From a bacterium (GTDB lineage: Bacteria; Patescibacteriota; Minisyncoccia; Phycocordibacterales; UBA5272): a DNA stretch of 64,000 nucleotides. The stretch spans positions 14,866 to 78,865 of the forward strand of contig JAIXVU010000009.1 in assembly GCA_027482685.1 (NCBI GenBank), written 5' to 3'. Every line of letters begins with the position of its first letter. Within the stretch, counting starts at the first letter, position 1. The notes beneath the pieces are model-generated. The model saw only the letters and a list, made by a program, of their open reading frames with translations, did no database searches and had not been told where the DNA came from. Made by a program: the position numbers and the translations under genes. Below, piece after piece: positions 20,585-44,540 of the stretch.

Positions 20585-20670
20585 AGTCTACCCGCGTTAA
20601 GAGAGATTTTTATTCCCGCAATGTAGGTCTACTACATCTTGGTCGCAAAAATCTTTCTTGCCTTGCATTT
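20585..20670 (+). repeat. Copy R1 of an ~85-nt structured intergenic repeat family (core AATGTAGGTCTACTACATCTT)
   Basis: The conserved core is flanked by complementary arms GATTTTT...AAAAATC, directly after the nusG stop. Confidence 0.7.
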
Positions 20671-20782
20671 AAAGCAATTTTTGAAATCTTCTTGTACCAA
20701 GCTCGTGGGCTCCTTAATAGCAAATTAGCTCTTGAAATATATTAAAAAACGTGATAGAGTACTATAACTTACAAAAACGATT

Positions 20783-21196
20783 ATGGCAGGAAAGAAAATT
20801 ACAAAATACGTAAAAGTTCAGATAGAAGCGGGTAAAGCTACTCCAGCTCCTCCACTTGGTCCTGCCCTTGGTCAGGCTGGTGTTCAGATTGGAGACTTCG
20901 TTAACAAATTCAATGCTGCAACTCAAGGCAAGCAAGGCCGTATGTCAGTAAAGATCTACGTATACGAAGATCGTACATATGACTTTGTGATCAAGACCCC
21001 AACCGCGACATCTCTTGTTATGAAAGCAGCAAACGTTGCAAAGGGTAACAGTAAAGGAAATGCAGGGACTATCAGTAAAGATAAGATTCGTGAGATTGCA
21101 ACCACAAAGCTTGAAGATCTAACAGCTCACACTGTAGAGCAAGGGATGAAGATTATTGAAGGTACTGCTCGCTCTGCCGGCATCAAAGTCGTTTAG
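20783..21196 (+). CDS. rplK: 50S ribosomal protein L11
   Basis: MAGKKITKYVKVQIEAGKATPAPPLGPALGQAGV is a canonical L11 N-terminus. Confidence 0.9.
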   Translation: MAGKKITKYVKVQIEAGKATPAPPLGPALGQAGVQIGDFVNKFNAATQGKQGRMSVKIYVYEDRTYDFVIKTPTATSLVMKAANVAKGNSKGNAGTISKDKIREIATTKLEDLTAHTVEQGMKIIEGTARSAGIKVV

Positions 21197-21210
21197 CCAT
21201 AAAATAGCCA

Positions 21211-21295
21211 CCTACTTTGTCGCCGAGATATTTTTCTCGGTCAATGTAGGTCTACTACATCTCTCTCGAAAAATATCTCGGCTTCGCGTAGCTGT
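21211..21295 (+). repeat. Copy R2 of the structured intergenic repeat family
   Basis: The arms CCGAGATATTTTTC / GAAAAATATCTCGG surround the core AATGTAGGTCTACTACATCT. Confidence 0.7.
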
Positions 21296-21468
21296 CTCAT
21301 TTTCTGACTAAACATGTTTCGTATCTAAGACCGTTTTTTAATTTTATATATTTACGGTAAAACATAAACAAAACTCCGCATTAGTTGCGGAGTTTTGTTT
21401 TGCCGTGTAGGATTATCTCAGCCCCAGAAATGGGATTTCAGTTCGCTTTAAAATCAGAGGTGTACGTC

Positions 21469-22608
21469 ATGACAACTCAAAGTGTTGGTGCATTCAGTAA
21501 GGACGATCTGACGGCTTTTGTCGTCGCAGGCCGCATTGAAACCTTGGATGGGTTTGATCAAAAACACATCGGTTCTGCGTCAATTGATATTACCGTTGTA
21601 GACGGTGAGGCATACCGCGTTGAGCGCTTAGTGCGCCCGAGTGGAAAACGCGGTGAAAAAGTCCGTGATTTATTTCCTGCTTTGATGCCACGACCAGTTG
21701 AGCTTGGCACGGTACTTGTCCCAGGCGAAAAATATATCGCAAAAGCAACGCTCAACACTAACTTTCCTCCGGATGTCTATGCATATGCAAATGCCAAGTC
21801 AACAAGTGGGCGAAACATGTGTTTGTGTCGCACTCTTGCAGACGGGGTTGAGGGTTATGACACTCTGGATAGGAGGTGGAGTGGTTGGAGTGGTGAGGTC
21901 TGGCTTACAATTGAACCTCTCGTCTTCCCAATTATTCTCACAGACAAGGAATGTTATGCACAGGTGAGAGTTTTTGACGGGGATACTCGTTTCCAAGAAG
22001 AAGATTTGAGGCAAGAATTGATTAAGCAAGATTTACTGTATCGTCAAGATGGCGGTAGATATAAGCAGGGTGAGCTTGCGCTTGCTTCAGGTGATGGAAC
22101 AGTGTTCACGACGTTGTATGCAAAGGCTGGTAAGCTCGTCGGGTTTCGCGCAAGAAGGACCCGTAGACCGCTTCATCTCGAGGATAGAGGGCTTGATCCT
22201 CGTGAGTATTTCGAGCCAGTATACGCGGAGCTTGACCCAAGCGATTCAGATGGCGGGCTCATCACACTCGAACCAGGCTGGTACTACTTGCTGTCGACGA
22301 ACGAGACGCTTGATGTTCCTGAGCATTTGTGTGCTGAGCTTGTTATGCTTCATGCACGCTTCGGGTTGTTCTTCTCACACTTCGCAGGGTTCTTTGATCC
22401 TGGGTTTCGAGGAGTACCAACGCTTGAAGTGACGTGTCTTCTGCCCACCACGATGAGGCACCGTGAAGCTATCGGTTGTTTCCGCTATGAACGCATGCGC
22501 TCAGCGACTGAGTCCTATGCAAAGACGGGTAACTATAGCGGTCAGACTCGTACAACCCTCCCTAAGCAGTTTACAATGCCAGATGAGTGGCGTGCTGCTA
22601 TGGTGTGA
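21469..22608 (+). CDS. dCTP deaminase-like protein with a tandem dUTPase-fold (PF06559-type 2'-deoxycytidine 5'-triphosphate deaminase)
   Basis: The ORF is ~380-407 aa depending on start (ORF-track start 21385; alternative ATGs at 21430 and 21469). The GFFDPGFRG motif resembles the dUTPase/dCTP-deaminase GxxDxGYRG motif. The gene looks markedly GC-richer than its flanks by eye. Confidence 0.4.
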   Translation: MTTQSVGAFSKDDLTAFVVAGRIETLDGFDQKHIGSASIDITVVDGEAYRVERLVRPSGKRGEKVRDLFPALMPRPVELGTVLVPGEKYIAKATLNTNFPPDVYAYANAKSTSGRNMCLCRTLADGVEGYDTLDRRWSGWSGEVWLTIEPLVFPIILTDKECYAQVRVFDGDTRFQEEDLRQELIKQDLLYRQDGGRYKQGELALASGDGTVFTTLYAKAGKLVGFRARRTRRPLHLEDRGLDPREYFEPVYAELDPSDSDGGLITLEPGWYYLLSTNETLDVPEHLCAELVMLHARFGLFFSHFAGFFDPGFRGVPTLEVTCLLPTTMRHREAIGCFRYERMRSATESYAKTGNYSGQTRTTLPKQFTMPDEWRAAMV

Positions 22609-22677
22609 GCTCTGTTTTCCAAGCGGTCCTGTAGGGCCGCTTTTTCTTTTCTTTCTTTTTGTAGTAGAGTAGAAGGT

Positions 22678-23097
22678 ATGAAACTTTTTATAAAAAAATT
22701 ACGTAATGATGCAAGGTTGCCAACTCGTGCTCATGACGACGATGCAGGGATTGATTTATATGCGTGCGGTGAACATAAAGTTCCACCACATGCAACCGCA
22801 ATGATCCCAGCAGGTATTGCGCTTGAGATAGAAGAGGGCTATGTAGGGCTCATTTGGGACAAGTCATCAATTGGTTCTAAAAGTATGAAGACATTAGGTG
22901 GTGTTATTGACGCAGGCTATCGTGGTGAGATAACAGTAATGGTTCATAATTTGAACGATGAGCCATATACATTTGAAAACGGAAATAAAGTTGGTCAGAT
23001 GCTAATACAAAAAGTTGAATTCCCAGAAATTATAGAAGTAACTGAATTGTCAGAGTCTAAACGTGGAACAGGAGGATTCGGAAGTACTGGAAAATAG
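22678..23097 (+). CDS. dut: dUTP diphosphatase
   Basis: AGIDLYA and GVIDAGYRGEITV match dUTPase motifs; the ORF is 139 aa. Confidence 0.85.
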   Translation: MKLFIKKLRNDARLPTRAHDDDAGIDLYACGEHKVPPHATAMIPAGIALEIEEGYVGLIWDKSSIGSKSMKTLGGVIDAGYRGEITVMVHNLNDEPYTFENGNKVGQMLIQKVEFPEIIEVTELSESKRGTGGFGSTGK

Positions 23098-23187
23098 GCT
23101 TATATAGTTTTTGCAAAATCACAATCAAAAAGGTAGGATTGTGACGTACAGCTTGTATAGCTGATTGTTCCTACAGGAGATTGTAAC

Positions 23188-23748
23188 ATGTCAAAGCGTA
23201 CCGTTCAGGTAGTGTGTGCCATTTCTTCACCTGATGGAATTTTTGGTGAAGGGGATGGGTTGCCGTGGAAGTTCGGCAGACCAAACGAGGACTTCAAGAG
23301 GTTCAAAGATCTCACAGGTGAGACCACCAAGGGTTCTGTCATCATGGGACGTGCTACATGGGAATCACTACCGCTAAACTTTCGACCGCTTAAGGGACGA
23401 CAGAATATTGTCGTTACTCGTAATCTTGACTACTACGAAGAAGGCGCTGAGGTCTGCTACTCGTTAGACGAGGCGCTTGAGCGTGCAGAGTCGCCTACTA
23501 TCTCAATCATTGGTGGTAGAGAGTTGGTAAAAGAAGCGCTCGAACGGCATCTCATTGACGTTGCTCACATTACTGTGGTTGAAAAGACATTACCTTCAAC
23601 TGATGCTACGGTGTATTTTCCGCAGCTGTTATCGAGTGAGTTTCTTTTCCATCTTGCAAGCATCTCTGTTGAACAACATACACAAGCATTAGAAGATGGT
23701 GCTTTTGTTAACATTCTTTTCAAGAGATATGAACGTCGTGATACTTGA
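23188..23748 (+). CDS. folA: Dihydrofolate reductase
   Basis: GLPWKF, VIMGRATWESLP and NIVVTRN match DHFR motifs. Confidence 0.8.
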   Translation: MSKRTVQVVCAISSPDGIFGEGDGLPWKFGRPNEDFKRFKDLTGETTKGSVIMGRATWESLPLNFRPLKGRQNIVVTRNLDYYEEGAEVCYSLDEALERAESPTISIIGGRELVKEALERHLIDVAHITVVEKTLPSTDATVYFPQLLSSEFLFHLASISVEQHTQALEDGAFVNILFKRYERRDT

Positions 23749-23842
23749 ACTATCGCAGGGAAAGGGAAACGCGGCCGAGAGGCCGCGTTTTTTGTTATAA
23801 AAGAAAAGCCTTGTCCAAAGACAAGGCTTTCCACGTACAAGA

Positions 23843-24778
23843 TCAAAGCATTTCCGCCGGAATCTTTTCATGTGAACGGTATTTCTCAAGTCGAATATCA
23901 CGCATGGTGAATGAATCAATATCCGTGATATCAGGATTGAGCCAAAGTGTCGGAGCTTCAAGCGGTGTGCGAGAGAGTTGCTCTTTTACCTGGTTGCCGT
24001 GTCCACGAGTGTAGTTCTGTACTTTCTGCTCACCTTCAAGGGCAGCAAGATATACATGACAATCTTCAAGTGTCATGACCAGTTCTCCTGCAACCATGTC
24101 GACACACTGTGCAATCATGTGTAGCAATAATGCATAGCTTGCGATATTGAAGGGGACGCCAAGGAACATATCACAGGACCGCTGGTCCATTGAAAGATCC
24201 AAGAACATTTTGCCGCCTTGAGGATTGGGGCGGACAAAGAGCTGGAACTTCATGTGACAAGGTGGTAAGCACATGTCGTCAATCTCACCAGGGTTCCATG
24301 CATTCACGACATGGTAACGACTGAATGGATCATCTTTCAGTTGATTGATCACTTTCGTAATCTGGTCATAGGTTTTGCCTTGCGCATTGATCCAGTTACG
24401 CCATTGTGCCCCGTAGATGCGACCGCAGTCACCTTCAAACTTTGCTTTTCCTTGGGACGCAAACCGAGCTTGGTCATGCGTCCAGATGTTCCGTGCCTGA
24501 GGTGCTTTACCCATGTATTCATTTAGCTTGGCAAGTGATAATCTGTAACCCGAGTCTTCGCCGGCATCAAGGAACCACAGTAGTTCGGCTTTCACCACTT
24601 CAAATGCAAGGAATTTTGTGGTAACAGCAGGGAATCCTTTTAGCAAATCAAAACGCATCTGGTGTGCGAGTATCGCAGTTGTTACGCCGTTACGGGTTAC
24701 ACGCACTGACCCATTGACCATCGTCTCACGAAGTGCACCCAAGAAGACTTGTTCGTTTGGGTTAATAGAAGAGGTCAT
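23843..24778 (-). CDS. thyA: Thymidylate synthase (ThyA type)
   Basis: AHQMRFDL, LLWFL, and the active site PPCHMKFQLFV are present. The start is taken at MTSSINP, not the upstream ATG. Confidence 0.85.
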   Translation of the reverse strand: MTSSINPNEQVFLGALRETMVNGSVRVTRNGVTTAILAHQMRFDLLKGFPAVTTKFLAFEVVKAELLWFLDAGEDSGYRLSLAKLNEYMGKAPQARNIWTHDQARFASQGKAKFEGDCGRIYGAQWRNWINAQGKTYDQITKVINQLKDDPFSRYHVVNAWNPGEIDDMCLPPCHMKFQLFVRPNPQGGKMFLDLSMDQRSCDMFLGVPFNIASYALLLHMIAQCVDMVAGELVMTLEDCHVYLAALEGEQKVQNYTRGHGNQVKEQLSRTPLEAPTLWLNPDITDIDSFTMRDIRLEKYRSHEKIPAEML

Positions 24779-24943
24779 GTCTGACTCCTGTGAAAGTTGT
24801 TGAAAAATGAACTGCAAACAGCCGTATATACTGTACCGCTTTAAGCGTTGTTTAGCAATATTGCTCTATATATTAAAATTATGTACTCTTTATCTTGGAA
24901 TACAGTCATTCACTGTATGCTTACACAGTAAGGAGAAAGTACA

Positions 24944-25642
24944 ATGTTTGCAAGATTAATTGTCATTGAAGGATCTGATGGTGCGGGGAAGGAAACACAA
25001 GCCGATCTTCTGGCCGGCTCCTTCCGTTCGCAGGGTCGAACAGTTGCAAAGGTATCATTTCCTCGTTACCGAGAGACTCTGGGTGGGATGTTGATATGGG
25101 AGGTCCTCAAAAGTGATCGCGCCTATACGTATAACTTTGCAAAGAGCGACCCGAGATTGGCGAGCATGATGTATGCCGCAGACAGAAAAGAATCACTTCC
25201 TCTTCTTCGTCAACTGATTGAAAAAAACGATGTGGTCATTCTTGATCGTTACGTGGAGTCTAATCTTCTGCATCAGGGTGGCAAGTTTGCTACCGAAGAA
25301 GAGAGGATCCTGTTTGCAAAGTGGCTGTATGACCTTGAGTACGGAGATAACCATCTTCCGAAACCTCATAAGGTTGTCTATCTCTCGCTTCCATTCTGGC
25401 TGTCACGCAAACGTGCTGAGCTACGCGCAGCACAGACCGGCGGCACACTAGATGCAGTGGAGAGAGATACTGCCTACGTTAAGGCTGGGCATGAGTCAGG
25501 TCTTTTCTATGCCAATCACTTCGATTGGTCTGTAATTGATTGCCTTGAAGGCGAGAGAGAGCTTACCCGCGCAGAAGTGCACAAGAAGATATGCGACGTC
25601 GTTGACAATAGCTCGTTTACTCGCCATAAGCAGACGCCATAG
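24944..25642 (+). CDS. tmk: Thymidylate (dTMP) kinase
   Basis: The P-loop IVIEGSDGAGKETQ and LDRY motifs are present. Confidence 0.8.
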   Translation: MFARLIVIEGSDGAGKETQADLLAGSFRSQGRTVAKVSFPRYRETLGGMLIWEVLKSDRAYTYNFAKSDPRLASMMYAADRKESLPLLRQLIEKNDVVILDRYVESNLLHQGGKFATEEERILFAKWLYDLEYGDNHLPKPHKVVYLSLPFWLSRKRAELRAAQTGGTLDAVERDTAYVKAGHESGLFYANHFDWSVIDCLEGERELTRAEVHKKICDVVDNSSFTRHKQTP

Positions 25643-25728
25643 TCGTATTGCAGGCACCAGAACCCAGTTGACCTACGTCAACTGGGTTCTTTCTTTTTAT
25701 TCTCTTCTAAATACGGTACTATAGTGGA

Positions 25729-27495
25729 ATGAATGCATACACAGAAATATATAATTCTCTAAAAGAATTTGCCGGAGAGGCAAACTTTTCACTTGATATT
25801 TCTGAGAGCGTGGCGCATGGAGATTATGCAACTAACGTCGCTTTTGTTCTTAGTAAACAAAAAGGGGTGAGTCCTAAAGTATGCGCTGATGAATTGACAC
25901 AAACTCTAAAAGAAAAAATTTCGAATATTGTGAATGATATACAGGTAGCAGGTCCTGGATTTATCAACTTTTTCTTGCGAGATGATGTACTACGAAAAGA
26001 AAACGAGAGCAGTCAATTAAAATTGGTGACCAGCTATTCTGGTAAGAATATTCTTGTCGAGCACTCATCGCCAAATCTCTTCAAACCATTCTCAGTTGGA
26101 CATCTCATGAATAACATCATCGGTGAGTTTGTGGCACGAGCTGTAAAAGTAGGTGGTGCAAATGTGATGACAATGTCATTTCCGTCCGATGTATCGCTTG
26201 GTATTGCTAAGGCACTCATGATGATTGAAAGAGATATCAATAAACAAGAGATAACAATAGATTATTTTAATAATGAGCAGGAAGATGTTGTTATTAAATA
26301 TCTTGGTGAAGCATACGTAAGAGGTGTTAAAGCGTGTGAGGAAAATGAACAAAGTCTAGAAGATGCAAAAAAAGTTTTAGATAAATTATATAAACATACA
26401 AACACAGGAGGAATCATAGAAGATGAAACTTTTTATCAACTAGTTGGTCGTACGCGAATAATTAATGAGAATTATTTCAAGAAAGTTTTAGAAAGCATAG
26501 ATAGTAAGATTGATGCTTTTGTATATGAAAGTGAAGCTGGTAATGCTGGGCTAGAAATTGTTAAAGAAAATACAGGTGAAGGAAAAGTATTTACAGAAAG
26601 TGAAGGAGCTATTGTCTATATTCCACATGAAGATAGAAAAGATATTAATACGTCTGTATTTATTAATAGCCAAGGATATCCAACATATGAAGCAAAGGAT
26701 ATTGGATTAATTACTATTAAGTTTAGTGGAGCGTTTGGATTACAAAATGTTAAAGATTTTATACCAGAAGAGTCATTCTTTATAACAGACGCGGAACAGA
26801 TTTCACATTTCAAAGTGGTGTTAGATGCTGCTAGTAAACTAGGAGGTGATTGGCCAGAGTGGGTAGCAAAGAGTCACCATGTTCCACATGGACGTATGCT
26901 ATTCAAAGGAGCGAAGATGTCGAGTAGGTTAGGTGGTGTACCGCTTGCACTTGATGTGATCGGCGTTGTTGAGGAAGAGGTACGAGAACGAGCAGGTGAG
27001 AAAATTGCCCATCTTGGCGATGAGGAGAAGAAGAAGTTAGAACGTGATATAGCCCTCTCTGCGCTTCGTGTTGCAGTGCTACGTAGCAAGCCTGGGATTA
27101 ATATCAACTTTGATCCAGAGACGTCGCTATCATTTGAAGGGGACTCAGGACCATATCTTCTCTACACACACGCACGATGTAGTTCGTTGCTTGAAAAAGG
27201 CAAAGAGAAAGGATACGAGCCAATATTTGGAGATGTTGCATCTCTTCCTATCGAGCACGAGCTCGTAGCATTTGAGCTCGTACTTAAAGATGCGGTAGAG
27301 ACACTTGCTCCACAGAAGCTTGTCACGTATCTCTTCAAAGTTGCTCAGGCATTTAACTCATTTTATGGGAATACACAGATTGTTACTGATAACAAAGAAG
27401 AATCAGAGCACAGCCTCGCAATTGTAACTCGTGTGAAGTTTGTCCTCAAAGAAGGGCTCCATGTCCTTGGAATAAATGCTCCTGAGAGAATGTAG
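25729..27495 (+). CDS. argS: Arginyl-tRNA synthetase
   Basis: The 588-aa ORF has a class I core and a C-terminal DALR anticodon-binding domain. Confidence 0.8.
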   Translation: MNAYTEIYNSLKEFAGEANFSLDISESVAHGDYATNVAFVLSKQKGVSPKVCADELTQTLKEKISNIVNDIQVAGPGFINFFLRDDVLRKENESSQLKLVTSYSGKNILVEHSSPNLFKPFSVGHLMNNIIGEFVARAVKVGGANVMTMSFPSDVSLGIAKALMMIERDINKQEITIDYFNNEQEDVVIKYLGEAYVRGVKACEENEQSLEDAKKVLDKLYKHTNTGGIIEDETFYQLVGRTRIINENYFKKVLESIDSKIDAFVYESEAGNAGLEIVKENTGEGKVFTESEGAIVYIPHEDRKDINTSVFINSQGYPTYEAKDIGLITIKFSGAFGLQNVKDFIPEESFFITDAEQISHFKVVLDAASKLGGDWPEWVAKSHHVPHGRMLFKGAKMSSRLGGVPLALDVIGVVEEEVRERAGEKIAHLGDEEKKKLERDIALSALRVAVLRSKPGININFDPETSLSFEGDSGPYLLYTHARCSSLLEKGKEKGYEPIFGDVASLPIEHELVAFELVLKDAVETLAPQKLVTYLFKVAQAFNSFYGNTQIVTDNKEESEHSLAIVTRVKFVLKEGLHVLGINAPERM

Positions 27496-27546
27496 TTTCG
27501 TTTTTTATGGGACTGCTATATACTAAAAGTTATAATCTCTAAATAT

Positions 27547-28398
27547 ATGAACTTTAACGGAAAACCTCTTAGCCTTGATACAAGAGCACTTGACGCAGCG
27601 GGACTAGTTCCGATAGATACACCAGAAGCGGTAAAGGATACTCCAAAAACAGTAGCAGCAATTTTAGCAGGAGGTGACCCCGTGGAACTCGAGGCCCTTG
27701 ATGCAAAGTATGCAGTTCCTACCTCAACACCGTCTAATGTAACTCCTGAGACAGCAACTGAAGCACCTATTTCTACCCCAGAAGGGTTTAATGTTAAGCA
27801 AGCTCTAGGCAATGCTTCAACCATAGAAGAAATAATTGATATTGTTAAAAAGGGGCAAACAGATGGCATGTTTTTCGGTTACCCGGTAGATAAGGCACTA
27901 AGAGTCCTAACTGAAGGATATGGTCAGAATTTTCCTGATAGCGATGTTCAAAATGCTGTTTTTCGCTTTGAGAATAACACAGGGGCTAGAGATCTCGGTC
28001 CTACGGCTAAAGAAGAATGGTATAAAAAATACTTTGCATCCAAACAACCAATTGAAGATATTAACCCTGCAAAAGTTGCAGTGCTTGATTATAGAGAAGA
28101 GGGTATTCTAAAAGATCTTGAGACAGTAGATTGGTTAGATGGTTATGCTAATCTTTTTAGCCAACTAACAAAAGCAGATCCAGCTCAAAAACTTTCAGTC
28201 GAAAAAGTAAGAATGGCTGTTGGCGGACTTCTTGATTCCTTTAGTGGTGGAGGTCTTAGTGGTCCACTTAAAGAAATACATCTCAGAAAGTTTAATGAGG
28301 CATTAATTAAGTTGCCTTTGAGCGAGCAACAAAGGTTAAGGTATCTAAGTAACAAAAAGATTGAAGAAAAAACAAAAATTGCTAATTTTATTAAATAG
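27547..28398 (+). CDS. Hypothetical protein
   Basis: 283-aa ORF with no recognisable motif. Confidence 0.4.
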   Translation: MNFNGKPLSLDTRALDAAGLVPIDTPEAVKDTPKTVAAILAGGDPVELEALDAKYAVPTSTPSNVTPETATEAPISTPEGFNVKQALGNASTIEEIIDIVKKGQTDGMFFGYPVDKALRVLTEGYGQNFPDSDVQNAVFRFENNTGARDLGPTAKEEWYKKYFASKQPIEDINPAKVAVLDYREEGILKDLETVDWLDGYANLFSQLTKADPAQKLSVEKVRMAVGGLLDSFSGGGLSGPLKEIHLRKFNEALIKLPLSEQQRLRYLSNKKIEEKTKIANFIK

Positions 28399-28762: not shown

Positions 28763-28769
28763 TATAATC

Positions 28770-37250: not shown

Positions 37251-37260
37251 GTACGTTATT

Positions 37261-38115
37261 ATGAAGTACGCATTTTTTGATATACATTCGCATCTACATG
37301 ATAAAGCGTTCGACGATGCAACGAAAGAATCACGTGAGCAGGTGATAGCTGATATGAAGTCTCGTGGAGTAGGAACTATTACTGTTGGTACAGGGCTTCT
37401 AGAATCTCGTGCAGCTATCGCACTAGCTGATGCTCATGATCATATCTACGCAACTATCGGCCAACATCCATGTGACAACGTACTTGAGGAATACGATGCT
37501 GATGCATACAAGAAACTTGCAGTCCATCCACGAGTCGTCGCCATAGGTGAGTGTGGACTGGATTATCACTACATAGAAAACTTTTTCGATAAGGATGTAA
37601 AAGAGAAGGGGTTGCACTGGAACAAAGACGCTGAGAAGGAGCGACAGAAAATAATCTTTCAGAAACAAATTGATCTTGCGATAAAGGTAGGCAAGCCACT
37701 CATGCTCCATGGACGGCCGAGCAAAGGTACGATGGACGCGTATGAAGACATGTTGGATATGTTAGAAGAGGCAAAACAAAAGCATGGAGATATACTACAC
37801 GGGAACGCACATTTCTTCGTAGGGAATATCGATATCGCGGAGAGATTTATTAATATTGGATTCACAATGAGCTTCTCAGGCGTTATCACGTTTACTCATG
37901 AGTATGACGATGTTGTGAGATTTATTCCGCTTGAGATGATACACGCAGAAACAGATAGCCCGTATGCGACACCGCACCCATTTCGTGGACAGCGCAATAG
38001 TCCACTTATGGTCCAAGAGGTTGCTGCTAAGATTGCGGTACTAAGATATGATGATTTTGAAGAGGTCCGAGCTCAGTTACTTGAGAATACAAAACGGATG
38101 TTTGGTATACACTAA
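37261..38115 (+). CDS. tatD: TatD-family metal-dependent hydrolase
   Basis: FDIHSHL and GECGLDYH are present; the start is taken at MKYAFFD. Confidence 0.75.
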   Translation: MKYAFFDIHSHLHDKAFDDATKESREQVIADMKSRGVGTITVGTGLLESRAAIALADAHDHIYATIGQHPCDNVLEEYDADAYKKLAVHPRVVAIGECGLDYHYIENFFDKDVKEKGLHWNKDAEKERQKIIFQKQIDLAIKVGKPLMLHGRPSKGTMDAYEDMLDMLEEAKQKHGDILHGNAHFFVGNIDIAERFINIGFTMSFSGVITFTHEYDDVVRFIPLEMIHAETDSPYATPHPFRGQRNSPLMVQEVAAKIAVLRYDDFEEVRAQLLENTKRMFGIH

Positions 38116-38200
38116 TTCTATCGGTTGACTTTTTCTTTCTAAAAGTGCAGGATACAGGTAAATAGTTCCTGCAACCTTTTAACCTTGACGGAGGTGTGAC

Positions 38201-38473
38201 ATGGCAGATGCCAATATGAAGCAGTATTGTGTCGCAGGCTTCGTTAAGGGGCCGGTTGACAACAAAGACGGGAGTGTGACATTCTTTGTCGGAGGACGAC
38301 GTTTTGTCCTTTCCACAAAAAGTGAGCACAAGGCCAAGCTTGAAAGAGCAAGGCGTGCCCTAGTGCTTTTCACGCTCAAAGAAAACAACAACAACCCCAA
38401 GATCGCCCTTGTTTTTGAAGAGCCGTCTACCAGGTTGATTCTCCAGTACATGAGAGAGAGTGAAAAGTTATAG
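38201..38473 (+). CDS. Small hypothetical protein
   Basis: The 90-aa ORF is followed by a strong terminator (GAGCCGCCAAAGGCGGCTCTTTTCTTTT at 38488-38520). Confidence 0.4.
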   Translation: MADANMKQYCVAGFVKGPVDNKDGSVTFFVGGRRFVLSTKSEHKAKLERARRALVLFTLKENNNNPKIALVFEEPSTRLILQYMRESEKL

Positions 38474-38551
38474 ACAACAAGACCTCTCCATCGAAGAGCC
38501 GCCAAAGGCGGCTCTTTTCTTTTGCCTAAAAATGTGGTAGAGTGATGGTCT

Positions 38552-39064
38552 ATGAATGAAAATAATGAAACCATAGTAGACAGCCGTGTATATGAAATTT
38601 CTTTCATCTTTGATAACAAACTAGATGAAGAAACGGCGCTTGCAAAAAGTAACGCAATCAAGCAGTCTATTGCTACCCTAGGAGGTGGCTTCATCTCAGA
38701 AGAAGCTCCGTATTTACGAGAGCTTGCCTATGAAATGACTCGCGTTGTTAATAACGTTAATATTCGCTTCAATGTTGGATACTTTGGATGGATCAAGTTC
38801 GAACTTGATGCTGATAAAGTAAAAGACCTAGAGAAGGGGATTAAACTAGACGAAGAAGTAGTTCGCTACCTCGTTGTCCAAACCGTTCGTGAGAATACCG
38901 TGTATACAAAACGTGCTCCAGTTATTAAAGCAGAATCATTAGTAAATAATGAGACTGATGACATGATTGCAGAACTTGTAGGTGATGATGTAGCCATTGA
39001 TCCAGTTGCAGAAATTGTACCAGATGTAGTTACTACTGAGGTTACTAGCGAAGAAACAAAATAA
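38552..39064 (+). CDS. rpsF: 30S ribosomal protein S6, with an acidic C-terminal extension
   Basis: YEISFIFD...RELAYEM matches S6, in rpsF-ssb-rpsR synteny. Confidence 0.75.
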   Translation: MNENNETIVDSRVYEISFIFDNKLDEETALAKSNAIKQSIATLGGGFISEEAPYLRELAYEMTRVVNNVNIRFNVGYFGWIKFELDADKVKDLEKGIKLDEEVVRYLVVQTVRENTVYTKRAPVIKAESLVNNETDDMIAELVGDDVAIDPVAEIVPDVVTTEVTSEETK

Positions 39065-39133
39065 GGATTACACTACGTAGTAGTTATTCTGTATTTTCTA
39101 ACAACTATCAACTAGAAACTAACAACTATTATT

Positions 39134-39610
39134 ATGTACCTCAACAAAACTTTTCTTTTCGGAAATCTTACACGTGACCCAGAACAAAAGGCGCTTCCTA
39201 ACGGAACCGCGGTGACTTCTTTCTCAATTGCAACTAACCGTGTTTACAAAGATGCAAATGGTGCAAAGCAAGAACAAGTAGAATATCACAATGTTGTTGT
39301 GTTCGGACGCCAAGCAGAGACAAGTGCACAGTATCTTAAAAAAGGTCAAGGTGTTCTCATTGAAGGACGTATCCAGACGCGTAGCTGGGATGATAAGACT
39401 ACTGGTGAGAAAAAGTATCGTACAGAAATTGTAGCAGATGCAGTGCAGTTTGGGCCGAAAGGTGGTAGTTCTGGCGGAGATGCGGGGGGTTATGCACCAG
39501 CTCCACAAGGAGCTAACCCAACAGTGGCACCGAAGGCATCGAATGCTCCAGATCTCGATACCATAGATTACGGTGACTCATCCATCAATGTTGACGACAT
39601 CCCATTTTAA
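39134..39610 (+). CDS. ssb: Single-stranded DNA-binding protein
   Basis: An OB-fold, a Gly-rich linker, and the C-terminal DDIPF tail are present. Confidence 0.9.
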   Translation: MYLNKTFLFGNLTRDPEQKALPNGTAVTSFSIATNRVYKDANGAKQEQVEYHNVVVFGRQAETSAQYLKKGQGVLIEGRIQTRSWDDKTTGEKKYRTEIVADAVQFGPKGGSSGGDAGGYAPAPQGANPTVAPKASNAPDLDTIDYGDSSINVDDIPF

Positions 39611-39625
39611 CGGCCATTAGCAAAG

Positions 39626-39712
39626 CACCTACTTCGTTACAGAATGTTTTTGCTCCCGCAATGTAGGTCTACTACATCTTGGCCGCAAAAACATTCTGTG
39701 CCTCGTATCTGC
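39626..39712 (+). repeat. Copy R3 of the structured intergenic repeat family
   Basis: The arms CAGAATGTTTTTGC / GCAAAAACATTCTG surround the core AATGTAGGTCTACTACATCTT. Confidence 0.7.
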
Positions 39713-39772
39713 ATTACTACTGACAGCTAAAATAGACCCCTCAACTCACTAAGAAAATTTAATTAAACCATT

Positions 39773-39976
39773 ATGAAAAAACAAGACTACTTCAATCAAA
39801 ATAACATTAAGTTCATCGACTATAAGGATACAGAAATTCTCGTGAAGTTCATCAACCCACACGCTCGTATTCTTAATCGTCGAAAGACAGGCCTAACAGC
39901 AAAGAATCAGAGATTGCTAGCGAATGCTATTAAGAGGTCACGGTTTATGGGACTTCTTCCATACGTTGCTCATTAA
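39773..39976 (+). CDS. rpsR: 30S ribosomal protein S18
   Basis: [26 protein letters not shown] matches S18. Confidence 0.85.
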
Positions 39977-39993
39977 ACAGACAAAATTAGTTC

Positions 39994-40076
39994 ATCTACT
40001 TTGTCGCTACGTTATTTTTCTCAGTCGCCGTACTAGTATGTACGTCTTCTTCTAAAAATCCCTATGCTCCTTGTAG
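39994..40076 (+). repeat. Copy R5 (diverged) of the structured intergenic repeat family
   Basis: TACTTTGTCGC...TATTTTTC...CTAAAAATCC follows the family architecture, but the core is degenerate. Confidence 0.5.
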
Positions 40077-40234
40077 CTAAACCAATTTTCTCTGTTTAAA
40101 GAGTTTAGCAAGTAATATATAAAGTAAAACACCACTTCGTAAGAAGTGGTGTTTTACTTTGGCAAAGTTATTATTTTTTGGTAGTATGTAAAGTATTAAA
40201 CCATTAACTATTAACCACTAACTACCAACTATTT

Positions 40235-40846
40235 ATGCACCCAAAGAAAGAAAGAACATTTGTTATTCTAAAGCCTGACGCAATTCAACGCGGTCTCGTT
40301 GGAGAGATTATTAAACGTTTTGAACGTATCGGTCTTAAGATAGTTGCTATGAAGATGCATATGGTAGATGAAAAGACTCTCTGGGCTCACTACAATAAAG
40401 ATGATGCATGGTATCTGAAGAAAGGTGAGAGAATTGCTGAGAATAAAAAATCTCTCGGTCACACGATTGATAAAGAACCAATTGAATACGGCAAAGATAT
40501 TATCCGTGCCATGGTGCACTATATGTGCGCAGGACCTGTTGTATCACTTGTGATAGAGGGTAACAATTCTCAAGCAGTAGTTAAGCGTCTTGTTGGCGGC
40601 ACAGAACCAGCTACAGCAGATAGCGGAACTATCCGTGGAGATTTTGCTATAGATTCATATATGCTCTGTGACACTGATGGTTCCCGTGGTATGCGTAATC
40701 TCATTCATTGTACTGACCCAGCAGATGGAGAGGGGGCATACGATAGAGAAGTTGCTCTGTGGTTCACAAAAGAAGAATTACATGACTATCGTCTAGTAAC
40801 TGAAGCTATGTTATATGATGTAAATTTGGACGGAATTCTTGAGTAA
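40235..40846 (+). CDS. ndk: Nucleoside diphosphate kinase (long form with an insertion)
   Basis: ERTFVILKPDAIQRGLVGEII and the active-site His region NLIHCTD are present. Confidence 0.75.
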   Translation: MHPKKERTFVILKPDAIQRGLVGEIIKRFERIGLKIVAMKMHMVDEKTLWAHYNKDDAWYLKKGERIAENKKSLGHTIDKEPIEYGKDIIRAMVHYMCAGPVVSLVIEGNNSQAVVKRLVGGTEPATADSGTIRGDFAIDSYMLCDTDGSRGMRNLIHCTDPADGEGAYDREVALWFTKEELHDYRLVTEAMLYDVNLDGILE

Positions 40847-41187
40847 TTTTTATCTTTACAACACTAAAACGACCCCAAAAGGGTTGTTTTTAGTGTGTAT
40901 TCCAACTATTAACTATTTATTACCAACTATTAACCAAACTTATCCACATAACCCACAGAAAAATCTCTTTACAGACTCTTGTGTAGTTATGTGAGAGGAA
41001 TATAATAACTAATAGGTGCTTTTAGAGTAATGAACTAGTGCTTCGAAGCCGTTCTGGGGCGTGAGATTATGATAGTCGTCTTGGCGCATATCTCTCTTAT
41101 ATCACAGAATTACAGTTCATCATCAAAGTACCTCCACTATAGAAAAATCCTGATGGGTGCCATCGGGATTTTTCTTTTGTAGGAAAC

Positions 41188-41757
41188 TTATTTATGTAAC
41201 AGTTCATTAATAATTCTCGCAAGAGAACTCTCTGGCATATACTTTATGTAAGCAAATACTCCGCCAGCACTAATTCCTAGTAGTAGAATGAGTGATATAA
41301 ATACCAGTACTCCAGCATGTGATTGAGGCGCTTCATCTACTATTGGCATAACAGATATTGGGGCTTGCATTGACGGAAGAGGTTGTTGCGGAGGTGGAGC
41401 AACTTCTGCAGTCTGCGGTATTACTTGAGCAAGGGGTTCGCTTACAGGATTAGTTGTTAACGGTGAAGGTGCCTCTTGGTGTATTTCTTGATGAGATGGT
41501 TGAGCGCTAAGTATCTCTGGTGACATCTCACGGCTTGCAGGATGAATAATTACGTTAGTCGCAAGAGGGTGAGCAGGTTCCACGATATGAGCAGCTTCAG
41601 GGTGTGGGTCTGCACCTAGGCGTTTGATTTCTTCATAGATACGATTAATCTCAACAAGAGGGATACCACCTTCAAGCATCTGCTCCTTCATTGTTGCATA
41701 CGTGCCTCCTTGTTCTTTGAAAAATTTTACCGTCTGCTGTACTAGTTCTTCATTCAT
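41188..41757 (-). CDS. Pro-rich hypothetical protein with a C-terminal TM anchor
   Basis: The 189-aa ORF has a terminator hairpin downstream at ~41150-41185. Confidence 0.4.
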   Translation of the reverse strand: MNEELVQQTVKFFKEQGGTYATMKEQMLEGGIPLVEINRIYEEIKRLGADPHPEAAHIVEPAHPLATNVIIHPASREMSPEILSAQPSHQEIHQEAPSPLTTNPVSEPLAQVIPQTAEVAPPPQQPLPSMQAPISVMPIVDEAPQSHAGVLVFISLILLLGISAGGVFAYIKYMPESSLARIINELLHK

Positions 41758-42056
41758 ATACTCTTGTTTGTTAGTATAACAATCTTTTTCTATTTTTGCT
41801 TAGATAACTAACAAAAATTGAGGACTTTACTTTTTATTTCGTATAGGAGTATAATCAAGTCTAGGGTGTTTAGGTATTTTTCTGGATAAAACATCTTTGG
41901 GTTATGGAATATTGGGAACTGCACCGAGGTGCTATCCGTTTCCTACCCACCTGAATTAAAACATCAGGAAGATGTCCTAACACCCTACTAGAGAAACTGT
42001 CCTAAGAGACGGTTTTTCTTTTTGCTCGTCTCTAAATATCTTGGGTCACGTATCGC

Positions 42057-42431
42057 ATGGTATACTTTGTAACGATGCGAGCAATTTTTTTCTCTTTTTT
42101 ATATCTCCTAGTTTTAGTATCTATATCAAAGTATATTTTTGACCCAGCCCATCTATACTATGTGTTATGGTGGTTAGATATCCCAATGCATTTTTTTGGT
42201 GGGATAGGCGTCGGTCTACTTACTTTTGCAACACTTAGATTTAGTAAGCAAAAGATAACATTTCATAAAGTCGTCATTATATATCTTGCTTTTGCGCTTA
42301 CGTGGGAATTATACGAATATGTAACTGATGTGATATATGGTACTGAGATAAATACGCTTATTGATTCTATAAAAGATATTTTAGTTGGATTAGTTGGCGC
42401 GGCTGGTGTTTATTATATACAAAGAAAATAA
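42057..42431 (+). CDS. Small membrane protein
   Basis: 124-aa ORF with three TM helices. Confidence 0.35.
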   Translation: MVYFVTMRAIFFSFLYLLVLVSISKYIFDPAHLYYVLWWLDIPMHFFGGIGVGLLTFATLRFSKQKITFHKVVIIYLAFALTWELYEYVTDVIYGTEINTLIDSIKDILVGLVGAAGVYYIQRK

Positions 42432-42432
42432 T

Positions 42433-43806
42433 ATGAGTACATTTAGAGTAACGTTTGCAGGTGGTGCGCAGATGCCAACAGGGTCTAACTTCTTGATTGA
42501 ATTTGGCGGTAAGAAGGTATTGATTGATTGTGGTCTCGTTCAAGGGGAGAAATGGTCGGTTCCAATTAACCGCGAGCCTTTTACATATGATCCAGCATCT
42601 ATTGATTACCTTTTTATCACACACGCTCATTTAGATCATGTTGGCAGAATACCTAGACTTGTACGTGATGGATTTAAAGGTGTGATAGTAAGTACCGAGC
42701 CAACACGAGACATGGCAGAGCTTATCATGCTTGATTCTATGGGGTTGCTCGGTAAAGAAGCATCTCAGCAAGGTCTTGAGCCATTATACGAAGAGAGAGA
42801 TGTCTTTCAAGCAATGCACCTATGGAATACAATTCTAACGTACCAAGAGCCATATATAGTAACAACTGATCAAGGAGAAGCCGTTATTACGTTTTATGAC
42901 GCAGGTCATATTTTAGGAAGTGCGATTATTGAGATTGCGTATAAAGGTAAGAAGATTGCTTTTACCGGAGATCTTGGCAACACTCCGTCTCCTCTTATGC
43001 GTGACACAGTAACGCCTAGCAATCTAGATTATATTGTTATGGAGAGTGTGTATGGAGATAGAAATCATAAAGATAAAGACAAACGTATCGAAATTGTAAA
43101 AGAGGTTATTACTTCAACTATTACGAAAGGTGGTACTGTTCTTATACCTGCTTTTTCTATTGAGCGTACTCAAGAAATGTTGCTTGCGTTTAACGAACTT
43201 GTTGAGAGTAAGCAAATACCAGAAATACCCGTATACCTTGATTCGCCACTTGGTATCAATATTACAAAGATCTATAAAAAACACGAGAAATGGCTCAATA
43301 ATGATGTTGGAAATGCTATTAAAAGCGGGGATGATGTCTTTGCGTTTAAGGGGCTTGTACAGACTCTTACCCCAGATGAGAGTAAAGCTATTAATAATGA
43401 TACAAGGCCAAAAGTTATTATCGCTGGAAGTGGAATGAGTAACGGTGGAAGAATATTACATCATGAAGCAAGATATCTCTCTGATCCACGAAGTGCGATT
43501 GTTATTGTCGGGTATCAAAGTGTCGGAACCCTCGGTAGAAAGATAGTTGACGAACCAAAAGATGTAATCATACACGGCCAAGTTGTACCGCTTCGTGCGC
43601 GAGTTGTTAACATTCACGGTTTTTCCGCACATAAAGATTCAGATCATTTAGTATCATTTCTTGAACCGACTGCAACAACGCTAAAAAAAGTTTTTGTAGT
43701 ACTTGGCGAACCTAAGAGCGCGTATTATCTTGGACAGAGAATACACGAGACCTATGGCTTACCTATTGCTGTTCCTGAAAAAGGGGATGTAGTAGAACTT
43801 GAGTAG
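42433..43806 (+). CDS. MBL-fold beta-CASP RNA-metabolising hydrolase (RNase J/CPSF-like)
   Basis: HAHLDHVGRIP is the HxHxDH metallo-beta-lactamase motif, and a beta-CASP region is present. The start is taken at MSTFRV. Confidence 0.65.
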   Translation: MSTFRVTFAGGAQMPTGSNFLIEFGGKKVLIDCGLVQGEKWSVPINREPFTYDPASIDYLFITHAHLDHVGRIPRLVRDGFKGVIVSTEPTRDMAELIMLDSMGLLGKEASQQGLEPLYEERDVFQAMHLWNTILTYQEPYIVTTDQGEAVITFYDAGHILGSAIIEIAYKGKKIAFTGDLGNTPSPLMRDTVTPSNLDYIVMESVYGDRNHKDKDKRIEIVKEVITSTITKGGTVLIPAFSIERTQEMLLAFNELVESKQIPEIPVYLDSPLGINITKIYKKHEKWLNNDVGNAIKSGDDVFAFKGLVQTLTPDESKAINNDTRPKVIIAGSGMSNGGRILHHEARYLSDPRSAIVIVGYQSVGTLGRKIVDEPKDVIIHGQVVPLRARVVNIHGFSAHKDSDHLVSFLEPTATTLKKVFVVLGEPKSAYYLGQRIHETYGLPIAVPEKGDVVELE

Positions 43807-43864
43807 TGATAATCTTCACCACTCTCTAGAAATTATAAGTTAAAACATGTACACTAGATAAAAT

Positions 43865-44440
43865 ATGAATTCCGATCGCGTAACTATAAGTGTTTCAGGG
43901 GCAGCAGAGATAGCACACTGTGGACCGTCTGTTATTTCCATTGCAAAAGAACTTGGTCGTGAGATTGCTCGCCAAGGTGCGCAGATTATTACGGGAGCAA
44001 CAAGTGGGTTCCCGCTCTATGCTGCAGAAGGTGCAAAAGAAGCAGGAGGTGTATCGTTTGGATTATCTCCTGCTGCGAGTAAGAAAGAACACCTAGAGGT
44101 GTATCGTCTTCCCGTAAAAGCAATGGACGCTATTATCTATACCGGGTTCGGATTTCCGGGGCGTGATCTCATGCTCGTGCGGTCATCAGATGCCATTGTT
44201 ATCGGGTGTGGGCGTATTGGCACTATACATGAGTTTACTGTTGCATGGGAGGCGAATATGCCACTTGGAATCCTTGAAGGTGAATGGGCAACAGATGAGG
44301 TGATACGTAATATAATTAAGAACAGTAACAGAGAGAACCCGTACGTTATTTTCGAAAAAGATCCGAAAGTTCTGGTGGAAAAATTAATAGAGATGGTACG
44401 GACACAAGCAGTTAACGGCGAACGCGAACTTCGTCTCTAA
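43865..44440 (+). CDS. LOG/TIGR00725-like Rossmann-fold nucleotide-binding protein
   Basis: IITGATSGFPLYAAEGA and GCGRIGTIHEF resemble the SLOG/LOG family. Confidence 0.45.
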   Translation: MNSDRVTISVSGAAEIAHCGPSVISIAKELGREIARQGAQIITGATSGFPLYAAEGAKEAGGVSFGLSPAASKKEHLEVYRLPVKAMDAIIYTGFGFPGRDLMLVRSSDAIVIGCGRIGTIHEFTVAWEANMPLGILEGEWATDEVIRNIIKNSNRENPYVIFEKDPKVLVEKLIEMVRTQAVNGERELRL

Positions 44441-44454
44441 CAAAATACTACCAC

Positions 44455-44540
44455 ATGTACTTTGTCGCAATAGGATTTTTGTAAGTCATCGTAGGTCTAC
44501 TACACCTCCTTATAAAAATCCTTAGGCTTCGCGTATCTAA
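44455..44540 (+). repeat. Copy R4 of the structured intergenic repeat family
   Basis: The arms AGGATTTTT / AAAAATCCT surround the core CGTAGGTCTACTACACCTCC. Confidence 0.65.

Follow-up and report, generated by a model that had tools for sequence, protein, structure and literature searches.

The attC sites of integrons are imperfect palindromes that start on, or overlap, the stop codon of the ORF before them and share its orientation; their structure is conserved and their sequence is not, except that the bases at the foot (R''/R', GTTRRRY) are conserved and the centre is variable, and their cassette arrays adjoin the integrase. The ERIC unit is approximately 127 bp long. ERIC elements, or IRUs, are imperfect palindromes with TA termini that form one long stem-loop, lie in transcribed intergenic regions, are co-transcribed with their neighbours, and exert an orientation-dependent effect on upstream mRNA stability that is tied to ribosome-induced opening (Delihas 2008, PMC2229807). 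The Correia/NEMIS elements of Neisseria (100-155 bp) have terminal inverted repeats and a TA duplication, and it has been proposed that their stem-loop, in RNA form, directs the processing of neighbouring transcripts by RNase III; TA termini are common to Correia, ERIC and RUP (PMC2229807). The RPE (Rickettsia palindromic elements) belong to a reduced genome; they are 105-146 bp long, and some are inserted in the genes for tmRNA and RNase P RNA (PMC2229807). REP/BIME sequences are extragenic palindromes, located mostly 3' of coding regions and in many cases probably transcribed, with a unit of 20-40 bp, one end of which bears an unpaired GTAG or CGTC tag (PMC3733652). These repeats are associated with RAYT (Y1 transposase) genes.

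The window analysed in this study, a 64-kb stretch of DNA, contains seven copies (covariance model, filters off) of a repeat that is part of a real family of palindromic, transposon-like hairpin elements of approximately 125 nt in bacteria of the candidate phyla radiation (CPR; Patescibacteria). This family of hairpins at stop codons is previously undescribed, no earlier description having been found in Rfam or in the literature searched, and resembles repeats known from other bacteria (ERIC, Correia and RPE). In Rfam 15, the elements of the window and of four further loci were without a match at the gathering score; at E<=10, the stretch with copies 1 and 2 overlapped only chance-level microRNA-precursor families (E 1.3 and 8.5), which scored far below their own gathering scores. 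The features of the window are as follows.

20563 to 20693, plus strand: copy 1, after nusG, 85.9 bits
21191 to 21313, plus strand: copy 2, after rplK (TAG stop codon at 21194-21196), 105.5 bits
21366 to 21400, no strand assigned: canonical GC-rich bidirectional intrinsic-terminator hairpin, 3' of copy 2
39604 to 39732, plus strand: copy 3, after ssb (stop codon at 39608-39610) and 5' of rpsR, 97 bits
39973 to 40099, plus strand: copy 4, after rpsR, 76.3 bits
40120 to 40161, no strand assigned: canonical terminator hairpin with a 19-bp stem, 3' of copy 4
44438 to 44556, plus strand: copy 5, after the SLOG/LOG-like gene (stop codon at 44438-44440), 87.4 bits
44591 to 44631, no strand assigned: canonical bidirectional terminator between copy 5 and the convergent rplT
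45352 to 45478, minus strand: copy 6 (new), after infC (stop codon at 45476-45474) and before rpmI, 91.9 bits
56840 to 57356, minus strand: tmRNA gene, 517 nt, host of copy 7
56918 to 57041, plus strand: copy 7 (new, diverged), within the tmRNA gene and antisense to the tmRNA, 43.9 bits

Copies 1 to 5 lie where the original prediction had placed them, and its names for the genes upstream agree with Pfam (NusG, L11, SSB, S18 and an SLOG/LOG-like protein; IF3 for copy 6). The family had been described as five copies, all on the plus strand; the covariance-model search that was proposed at the time returned two more, with matches at 45359-45461 on the minus strand (copy 6) and at 56934-57035 (copy 7). 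The shared core, ATGTAGGTCTACTACATCT, has four matches in the window at three or fewer mismatches against 0.02 expected, and the flanking arms quoted as perfectly complementary are correct. The size of approximately 85 nt, by contrast, spans only the inner part of a hairpin that measures approximately 120-130 nt with its further basal stem; over the family, each copy is one long, non-coding hairpin of approximately 120-135 nt. No pair of window copies is near-identical, and a recent burst is therefore not indicated. The window and MAGs that carry the labels Saccharibacteria, Nomurabacteria and Gracilibacteria together supplied a set of 34 distinct copies, and two to three copies occur in each of several 8-14-kb loci.

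All copies share one architecture, and the same long hairpin was obtained in 28 of 28 copies folded. The basal stem P1 is a terminal inverted repeat with a copy-specific outer part and a semi-conserved inner part (GUCAUAAAAU / AUUUUCUGAC), and is perfect at 16 bp in the tmRNA copy and at 17 bp in the infC copy (AAAUAACCAUUAAAAUU / AAUUUUAAUGGUUAUUU). Above it come conserved internal loops (CAUCUAC / GUAUCUAAAAC and UUUGUCGC / GCUUCGCG), a variable stem of 13-15 bp that terminates in AUUUUU / AAAAAU, and a conserved apical hairpin, AUGUAG-GUCUA-CUACAU, of which copy 4 has the variant CGUAC-UAGUAU-GUACG. The stems vary by compensatory substitution and the loops are constant. Across the 34 copies, changes on both sides occur at 21 of the 26 modelled pairs, 90.5% of cells are paired against 64.3% after shuffling, and the covariation score is 0.617, whereas shuffles give 0.167 and slid controls do not exceed 0.134; the flanks of a copy also pair better with each other than with non-cognate flanks (17.5 vs 11.4, sd 3.0). 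The covariation first noticed in five copies persists in a larger alignment, which supports the view that the structure is under selection or is being maintained. G.U pairs exceed A.C pairs only weakly (24 vs 17 overall; 5 vs 0 for isolated P3 mismatches), short of the excess that would prove selection on the sense RNA.

The elements hold a fixed position relative to genes. A co-oriented stop codon lies at most 21 nt upstream in 26 of the 34 copies, and in 21 of 26 copies at least two of the three stop-codon bases are paired within the basal stem, the 5' arm of the element carrying stop codons that terminate the upstream ORF. The stated start within 15 nt of the stop codon is borne out as adjacency to gene ends, and needs amending in that the stop codon itself belongs to the basal stem. 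In copy 1, that stem (AAGAAGAUUUAAAAAUCGCUU / AAGCAAUUUUUGAAAUCUUCUU) includes the final nusG codons and the stop codon at 20572-20574, and a promoter-like site for rplK follows 3' of the copy at 20732-20760. This genome does not generally place hairpins over its stop codons (p<=0.05 in 7 of 60 genes). The opposite-strand copies of the window (infC) and of L017 each follow their own gene, no copy lies inside a coding region beyond the last few codons, and the surviving copies are almost always sense, directly 3' of a gene, and before a canonical terminator or the next promoter. The upstream genes are mostly housekeeping genes, many of them encoding translation or transcription proteins.

Placement at gene ends, including sites of attenuators in other bacteria (rplL-rpoB in L007, and after nusG), would suit an unusual A/U-rich intrinsic terminator or attenuator, one of the functions initially considered. 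An intrinsic terminator has a G+C-rich stem and an immediate U-tract; the stems here are A/U-rich, no consistent U-tract lies 3' of the hairpin, and a terminator scanner detects only short internal sub-hairpins. Canonical GC-rich terminators stand 30-70 nt downstream of three window copies (2, 4 and 5) and also downstream of the L025 and L026 copies, and one copy is inside the tmRNA gene. Termination by the element is very improbable. A family of independently transcribed small RNAs, likewise suggested earlier, is more improbable still: the copies are structured, conserved and approximately 125 nt long, but they have no preceding promoter-like site and no terminator at their 3' ends, their basal stem overlaps upstream coding sequence, no Rfam family is matched, and nothing supports an independent small-RNA gene.

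The sites of the copies were compared with those of relatives. The tmRNA gene of 517 nt in the window is 390-396 nt and element-free in three relatives, and the alignment differs by one 125-nt block insertion flanked by TA..TA in the window, where copy 7 has the arrangement TA-[GAGTTTGCGAATTTGG...CCAAATTCGCAAACTC]-TA; this filled site corresponds to a single TA in the relatives, in one comparison in which 3-4 neighbouring nucleotides also differ. The same TA..TA arrangement, with the stop codon at the left TA, is found in the rplK and rpsR copies of the window (GTT-TA-[GCCATAAAAT...ATTTTCTGAC]-TA-AAC in copy 2 and CAT-TA-[AACAGAC...CTCTGTT]-TA-AAG in copy 4), in the rplK copies of L025 and L026, the ssb copy of L014, the gyrB copy of L001 and the second copy of a tandem pair in L013, although TA is frequent anyway in the A/T-rich stems of the elements. 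In several 3'-UTR copies the left TA is the TA of the stop codon, which is rebuilt as TA plus the first A or G of the element.

Presence and absence at orthologous sites was observed for nusG, rplK, ssb, rpsR, infC and tmRNA. At the rplK site, L024 is empty, L022 has a short remnant, and the window, L025, L026 and L003 are occupied, the L025 and L026 copies sitting between the stop codon and a terminator that is also present in empty alleles; in L021 neither nusG nor rplK is followed by the element, and occupancy of the ssb and rpsR sites varies among the window, L011 and L014. Related genomes also carry different subfamilies at one site, and several copies have their nearest kin at non-orthologous sites in other genomes: the nusG copy of the window is 80% identical to the rplK-site copy of L025, but its identity to the copies at the nusG site of L022, L023 and L026 is only 64-65%. 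The element is therefore mobile: at a given site, closely related genomes show its gain, its loss or its replacement. It has the further marks of the MITE class, namely, I) a size within about 100-300 bp and no coding capacity, II) several dispersed copies per genome, and III) terminal inverted repeats. The original prediction had set a MITE-like repeat against structural selection and had looked to random orientation inside coding regions as the sign of the former; 26 of 34 copies are sense and follow a stop codon, and the family is mobile nonetheless. The data show that mobility and structural constraint (strict sense orientation, compensatory stems) hold together.

Some observations would fit a vertically inherited 3'-UTR cis-regulatory RNA (a protein platform, an RNase III/RNase Y site or a translation-termination device) that is not mobile and that varies between genomes through loss and slow compensatory drift. 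The loops and apical hairpin are conserved, and the stems covary, across the MAGs of all three labels; the orientation is strictly sense, with the stop codon paired, downstream of many genes for translation or transcription proteins. Between the rplK copies of the window and of L026, which share 86% identity, two P3 pairs differ on both sides with pairing kept (CCGAGAU/AUCUCGG vs AUGAGAU/AUCUCAU). Furthermore, up to 7-10 bp of the basal stem pair with conserved coding sequence (nusG KKI*, rny AR*) and track synonymous changes, as the 3' arm of P1 does in nusG, so simple insertion is insufficient as an explanation. Against vertical inheritance stand the 125-nt antisense insertion in the tmRNA gene, the different subfamilies at one site in sister genomes with nearest kin elsewhere, the tandem pairs, and the absence of the element from genomes with a 96% identical L11, where it is dispensable. 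This alternative is regarded as doubtful.

A DNA hairpin that serves as the site of a recombinase or transposase reading folded single strands, as in attC, REP/RAYT or IS200/IS605 ends, is an equally unlikely alternative. Unpaired bases would be recognised, complementarity would be the sole requirement on the stems, and the strand that folds would determine the orientation. The conserved loops, the almost purely Watson-Crick variable stems with their weak G.U excess, the fixed orientation directly after or overlapping stop codons and the recurrence of GTAG/CTAC motifs in the core are in line with it, and arm-to-arm DNA correction could account for a basal stem that follows coding changes. Conversely, the pattern of conservation is opposite to that of attC, the hosts are scattered housekeeping genes with no cassette arrays, no integrase or HUH gene linked to the copies was found in the window, and orientation follows each gene even within 14 kb (L017 and the window), a pattern at odds with a replication-strand rule. 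No transposase with matching ends was found in the window, none of the 38 window ORFs scanned has a DDE or HUH domain, and no RAYT (Y1 transposase) gene was seen within the 64 kb. The only recombinase of the window belongs to an island at the 3' end of the tmRNA gene.

The best explanation, regarded as somewhat probable, is that of a MITE-like palindromic element that targets TA and whose surviving copies are under constraint as RNA hairpins of the sense strand in 3' UTRs. According to this model, a putative transposase would act in trans on the elements, and transposition would be directed to TA within A/T-rich and in many cases palindromic DNA. Selection on the transcript may account for the strict sense orientation and the maintained pairing. 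Within the mRNA, a rod of approximately 55 bp could stop 3'-to-5' exonucleases, be cleaved by an RNase specific for double strands, or both, and might thereby set the stability of the upstream cistron, as has been reported of ERIC and Correia elements; its basal stem would have to be melted by terminating ribosomes. The element may plausibly affect the stability or processing of mRNA 3' ends, although a stabiliser role looks redundant at copies 2, 4 and 5 because a canonical terminator is already downstream.

Among known systems, attC sites are similar in having a palindrome on the stop codon, the orientation of the upstream ORF and a structure that is kept. Integron attC was rejected as an assignment: the CPR element has a variable base and a conserved centre, and its hosts (nusG, rplK, ssb, rpsR, infC and similar) are scattered housekeeping genes in conserved synteny instead of a cassette array. 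A REP-like element was the closest of the options first put forward, since the copies are palindromic repeats that behave as mobile; the REP/BIME unit itself does not apply to a compound hairpin of 120-135 nt in which GTAG is paired within the apical stem. Correia elements are alike in size and in having terminal inverted repeats. The inverted repeats of Correia are conserved in sequence (24 bp), whereas the outer repeat of the CPR element varies per copy and yet stays complementary. RPE parallel copy 7 in their tmRNA-gene insertion, but they often lie in frame within protein-coding genes, of which CPR copies reach only the last few codons. ERIC shares the long stem-loop palindrome, TA at the termini and a transcribed intergenic location, with no sequence similarity seen between the two. 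ERIC occurs in both orientations and in enterobacteria only, while the CPR element is essentially always sense, has the stop codon in its basal stem, and has loops that are conserved across several CPR lineages.

The five repeats picked out by the original prediction were all recovered as described; they align over ~100 nt, reappear as repeat families, and follow the genes that had been named for them, with Pfam matches to NusG, L11, SSB, S18, and a SLOG/LOG-like protein. Four matches to the 19-nt core are present in the window at no more than three mismatches, against 0.02 expected. As a count, five was too low, since a scan without filters using R1, a covariance model of the element built from 17 copies, added two more.

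Additional copies of the element in the window
45359-45461, minus strand: copy after infC (a minus-strand gene) and before rpmI (R1, 91.9 bits)
56934-57035, plus strand: diverged copy (R1, 43.9 bits)

Exact matching of the 21-nt core yielded 10 loci among species-representative genomes, from MAGs whose label is Candidatus Saccharibacteria, Nomurabacteria, Gracilibacteria, or unnamed 'bacterium', and 8 further loci in metagenomes. These labels are those of the records, and 'Gracilibacteria' is to be treated with care, as that contig reads open under the standard code. For the window itself, similarity and conserved gene order shared with contig CAYXKW010000004.1, labelled Candidatus Saccharibacteria, suggest a Saccharibacterium; exact-protein look-ups of its S18 and of a SmpB match with 100% identity returned no record. 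Running R1 on these loci revealed more, further-diverged copies, tandem pairs among them; orthologous loci were collected via L11 and SmpB homologues, and the window and the other loci (L001 to L029) together hold 34 distinct copies. No matches were obtained with both core variants in viral contigs, with a full element copy in phage and plasmid collections (blastn), or, as regards anything relevant to the element, in Rfam at the gathering score (window and four loci) and at E<=10 (a two-copy stretch). A full-text literature search for the core sequence, and for MITEs and palindromic repeats of CPR bacteria or Saccharibacteria, returned none. Head-to-tail pairs, in which each member has its own basal stem, occur at L013 659-888 (= L012 317-546) and L015 3148-3407. 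Copies from Nomurabacteria carry nested G+C-rich hairpin insertions, CCTGCCTCGCCGGCAAGGTGG and CCAGCCAGAGGCTGGTCAGCCTCTGGCTGA, at two different points of the 5' half of the element, and these may represent a second small palindromic repeat.

Sites of nested G+C-rich hairpins
L002 3820-3845 (= L017)
L015 3264-3295 (= L010)

Each of the five original copies folds into the hairpin proposed for it, at z-scores between -1.8, for the diverged rpsR copy, and -7.6. The proposed length of ~85 nt falls short, however, because with flanks included every copy forms a single hairpin of ~120-135 nt. The inverted-repeat consensus is TA-(A)GTCATAAAAT.

Parts of the hairpin, from foot to apex
basal stem P1, the foot of the hairpin: 12-24 bp
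conserved loop next above P1: CAUCUAC / GUAUCUAAAAC
3-bp stem: UAC/GUA, covarying to UGC/GCA
conserved second loop: UUUGUCGC / GCUUCGCG, in a second subfamily UUUGUUAG / CUGCCUCG
variable main stem P3, the stem originally noticed: 13-15 bp
2-bp step: AG/CU, covarying to GG/CU and CC/GG
apical hairpin: AUGUAG-GUCUA-CUACAU, or a GUAC...GUAC variant

The compensatory changes first proposed from five copies are borne out by the 34-copy alignment, in which both sides have changed in 21 of the 26 pairs. Standard pairs occupy 90.5% of cells, compared with 64.3% after shuffling, and the covariation score is 0.617, compared with 0.167 in shuffles (0 of 500 reach 0.617) and at most 0.134 for slid partners; fitting this alignment to R1 favours structure, although the gap is wide and an analysis with MAFFT/RNAalifold shows covariation at these pairs too. 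P1 lies outside R1 and is specific to each copy, i.e., pairing with a copy's own flank averages 17.5, versus 11.4 (sd 3.0) with the flanks of other copies, and the own 3' flank ranks first in 11 of 32 copies. G.U combinations outnumber A.C combinations by position (24 versus 17 overall; 5 versus 0 among isolated mismatches in P3), an asymmetry that proved weak as a test of sense RNA, while a naive count from minimum-free-energy folds is misleading. The case for an RNA-level constraint therefore rests mainly on the strict sense orientation.

A co-oriented ORF ends at most 21 nt before the model start in 26 of the 34 copies. The exceptions are second members of tandem pairs, one copy with a nested GC-rich hairpin between it and its gene, the copy in the tmRNA gene, and copies that are 50-93 nt from the closest upstream co-oriented stop codon or have no clear upstream gene. 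Host genes include nusG, rplK, ssb, rpsR, infC, rpsT, prfB, grpE, gyrB, rny, ahcY, and ftsX, and some copies adjoin rplJ or rpoB. Two stretches (the window, through infC, and L017) have copies on both strands, each preceded by its own gene, indicating that orientation goes with the gene rather than with the replication strand. The stop codon of the upstream gene (UAA in 20, UAG in 6, and UGA in none of 26 copies) lies inside P1, and at least two of its bases are paired across the element in 21 of these 26 copies.

Termination of transcription, one of the functions initially considered, was rejected: no consistent U-tract follows the hairpin, and canonical terminators (A-tract/GC-stem/U-tract) are present as separate structures further downstream of three copies.

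Canonical terminators downstream of element copies
21366-21400: after the rplK copy
40120-40161: after the rpsR copy
44591-44631: after the LOG-like gene copy

L025 and L026 have the element between the stop codon and a terminator; in the empty loci L021 and L024, that same terminator comes immediately after the stop codon. Promoter-like sites for the next gene occur downstream of the nusG and infC copies. Elsewhere in the window, the nucleoside diphosphate kinase ORF (40235-40846, 203 aa) matches the 135-position Pfam NDK model in two separate stretches, a pattern hinting that the protein contains an insertion or is extended.

Occupancy of orthologous sites differs between genomes. The rplK site is filled in the window, L025, L026, and L003 and empty in L024; in L021, whose L11 is 96% identical, the nusG-rplK spacer is 70 nt without an element, and none follows rplK. 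The window, L011, and L014 likewise differ in occupancy at the ssb and rpsR sites, the infC copy is missing in three relatives, and at the LOG site there is no room for a copy in L029, the sole relative whose locus reaches there. L022 and L023 have only short hairpins at the rplK site, that of L022 consisting of element-end sequence (GTTTAGTTATAAAAT-CC-TTTTCTGAC). Such short stop-overlapping hairpins, some of them made of element-end sequence, stand where other genomes hold the full element (L022 10409-10440; L023 10409-10440; L014 1062-1085; L021 9925-9975) and may be deletion footprints. For several copies, the most similar copy sits in another genome at a site that is not orthologous. The window nusG copy is 80% identical to the rplK-site copy of L025, versus 64-65% to those at the nusG sites of L022, L023, and L026. 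The element moves between sites, or is at least copied from place to place.

A filled and an empty allele can be compared directly in the tmRNA gene, which measures 517 nt in the window versus 390-396 nt in three relatives that have no R1 match there. Alignment shows a single 125-nt block insertion in the window, the plus strand reading ...CTTA-TA-[GAGTTTGCGAATTTGG...CCAAATTCGCAAACTC]-TA-TGTTT... where the relatives read ...CTTAG-TA-TGTTT..., so that the 16-bp basal stem must have arrived with the element. TA flanks the insertion on both sides, 3-4 neighbouring nt also differ, and the copy is antisense to the tmRNA. It might be supposed instead that hairpins around stop codons are a general feature of these genomes and that the element lands in their loops; this is not supported, as only 7 of 60 window genes have a stop-overlapping hairpin at p<=0.05 and the tmRNA basal stem came with the element. 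The tmRNA gene (56840-57356, minus strand) was called by Rfam and missed by ARAGORN, a failure likely caused by the 125-nt insertion near its 3' part. An integrated island of ~10 kb (46974-56890) lies at the 3' end of this gene, and smpB, tmRNA, a DUF1295 gene, and infC are adjacent in L027, L028, and L029. A strong Rfam match to LOOT RNA (51932-52053, plus strand; 96.7 bits) lies inside the island and in part coincides with the beginning of an unannotated ORF of 237 aa (51975-52688).

Genes of the island
55187-56890: large serine recombinase, its last ~50 nt overlapping the tmRNA 3' end
49618-50283, minus strand: LexA/S24-like repressor
47955-49538, minus strand: M23 peptidase

The same TA..TA arrangement, with the TA of the stop codon as the left one, is found in the rplK copies of the window (GTT-TA-[GCCATAAAAT...ATTTTCTGAC]-TA-AAC), L025, and L026, in the window rpsR and L014 ssb copies (TA-[AACAGAC...CTC(T/A)GTT]-TA), in the L001 gyrB copy, and in the second member of the L013 tandem pair. 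The target implied is in many cases a short palindrome (GTTTAAAC, ATTTAAAT, CCGTTAACGG, AAATATTT). On entering the TA of a TAA stop codon, the element would re-create a stop as TA plus A or G and add a few basal pairs, which accounts for the position of the stop codon within the stem. In the grpE copy of L004 and copies in L005 and L008, the gene ends instead at a TAA within the 5' arm of the element.

Conserved coding sequence (nusG ...KKI*, rny ...AR*) supplies one side of 7-10 bp of the basal stem in several copies, and the 3' arm tracks synonymous differences among the orthologous genes (window AAGAAGAUUUAA / AAAUCUUCUU; L023 AAGAAAAUUUAA / AAAUUUUCUU; L003 AAAAAGAUAUAA / ..CCUUUUU). Pairing of the stop-codon region may be under selection; alternatively, the palindrome may extend or correct itself at the DNA level, for which template switching in quasi-palindromes is a proposed route. 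At L026 9755-9800, and in the same region of L022 and L024, the nusG stop (AAGAAGATATAG) is followed 5 nt on by an element 5' arm that near-repeats the gene end (GAAGATTTAA), while in the window, L023, and L003 the gene end and its near copy form one merged sequence, pointing to a deletion or duplication between direct repeats.

Taken together, the element is probably a MITE-like palindromic repeat that is non-autonomous and targets TA; a search of the window for a transposase partner found none. The transcribed hairpin might also alter the fate of the upstream mRNA 3' end, a plausible proposal, though less likely than not, in which it would act as an exonuclease barrier or a target for a double-strand RNase, with terminating ribosomes opening the basal stem. 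Such effects on mRNA have been reported for ERIC and Correia elements (PMC2229807). It is improbable, though conceivable, that the element goes beyond selfish DNA and is a transposable RNA module setting mRNA fate, mostly in highly expressed CPR genes, by means of a stop-codon clamp and conserved protein-bound loops. Its loops, conserved across CPR lineages, would then be bound by a conserved CPR protein, e.g., an RNase or a factor linked to the ribosome or translation termination, and complementarity to the last codons would be actively selected, tying translation termination to mRNA decay or processing in bacteria with small regulatory repertoires. A variant would make it a new, hairpin-defined kind of transposon that copies its target flank in inverted form. 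Some cultured Saccharibacteria may by now be genetically tractable, which would open an orientation-dependent effect on mRNA to a direct test.

We know of no described MITE-like repeat or 3'-UTR RNA element family in CPR/Patescibacteria, and as far as could be found this is the first such family described for CPR bacteria. If the MITE-like reading is right, these reduced genomes gain their first mobile palindromic repeat family, a marker of recent genome dynamics between close strains (including a tmRNA-gene insertion missed by ARAGORN), and a candidate element of post-transcriptional control for the 3' ends of operons encoding ribosomal proteins and translation factors. Annotation would benefit as well: a copy that goes unnoticed makes an intergenic region longer, re-creates a stop codon, and in some cases provides the final codons of a gene.

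The finding is genuine, and precedents exist for most of its behaviour. Size, inverted repeats, location in transcribed spacers, and probably TA ends are common to the element and to ERIC, Correia, RUP, and RPE, and RPE resembles it further in having inserted into a tmRNA gene (PMC2229807). In contrast, it does not correspond to REP, defined as 20-40 bp with a GTAG or CGTC tag (PMC3733652), to attC, with its conserved base, variable centre, and cassette arrays, to intrinsic terminators, or to any Rfam family. A likeness to the hairpin ribozyme, compared by eye (an A/GUC-like CAGUCA and a GUAU..AC loop), was set aside as the 'AGUC' is replaced by CCGC in one subfamily. On these grounds, the element is filed among the bacterial MITE-like palindromic repeats, a class for which its near-absolute sense orientation, its placement at stop codons, where a functional clamp is a possibility, and its covarying stems around internal loops conserved between CPR lineages are unusual.
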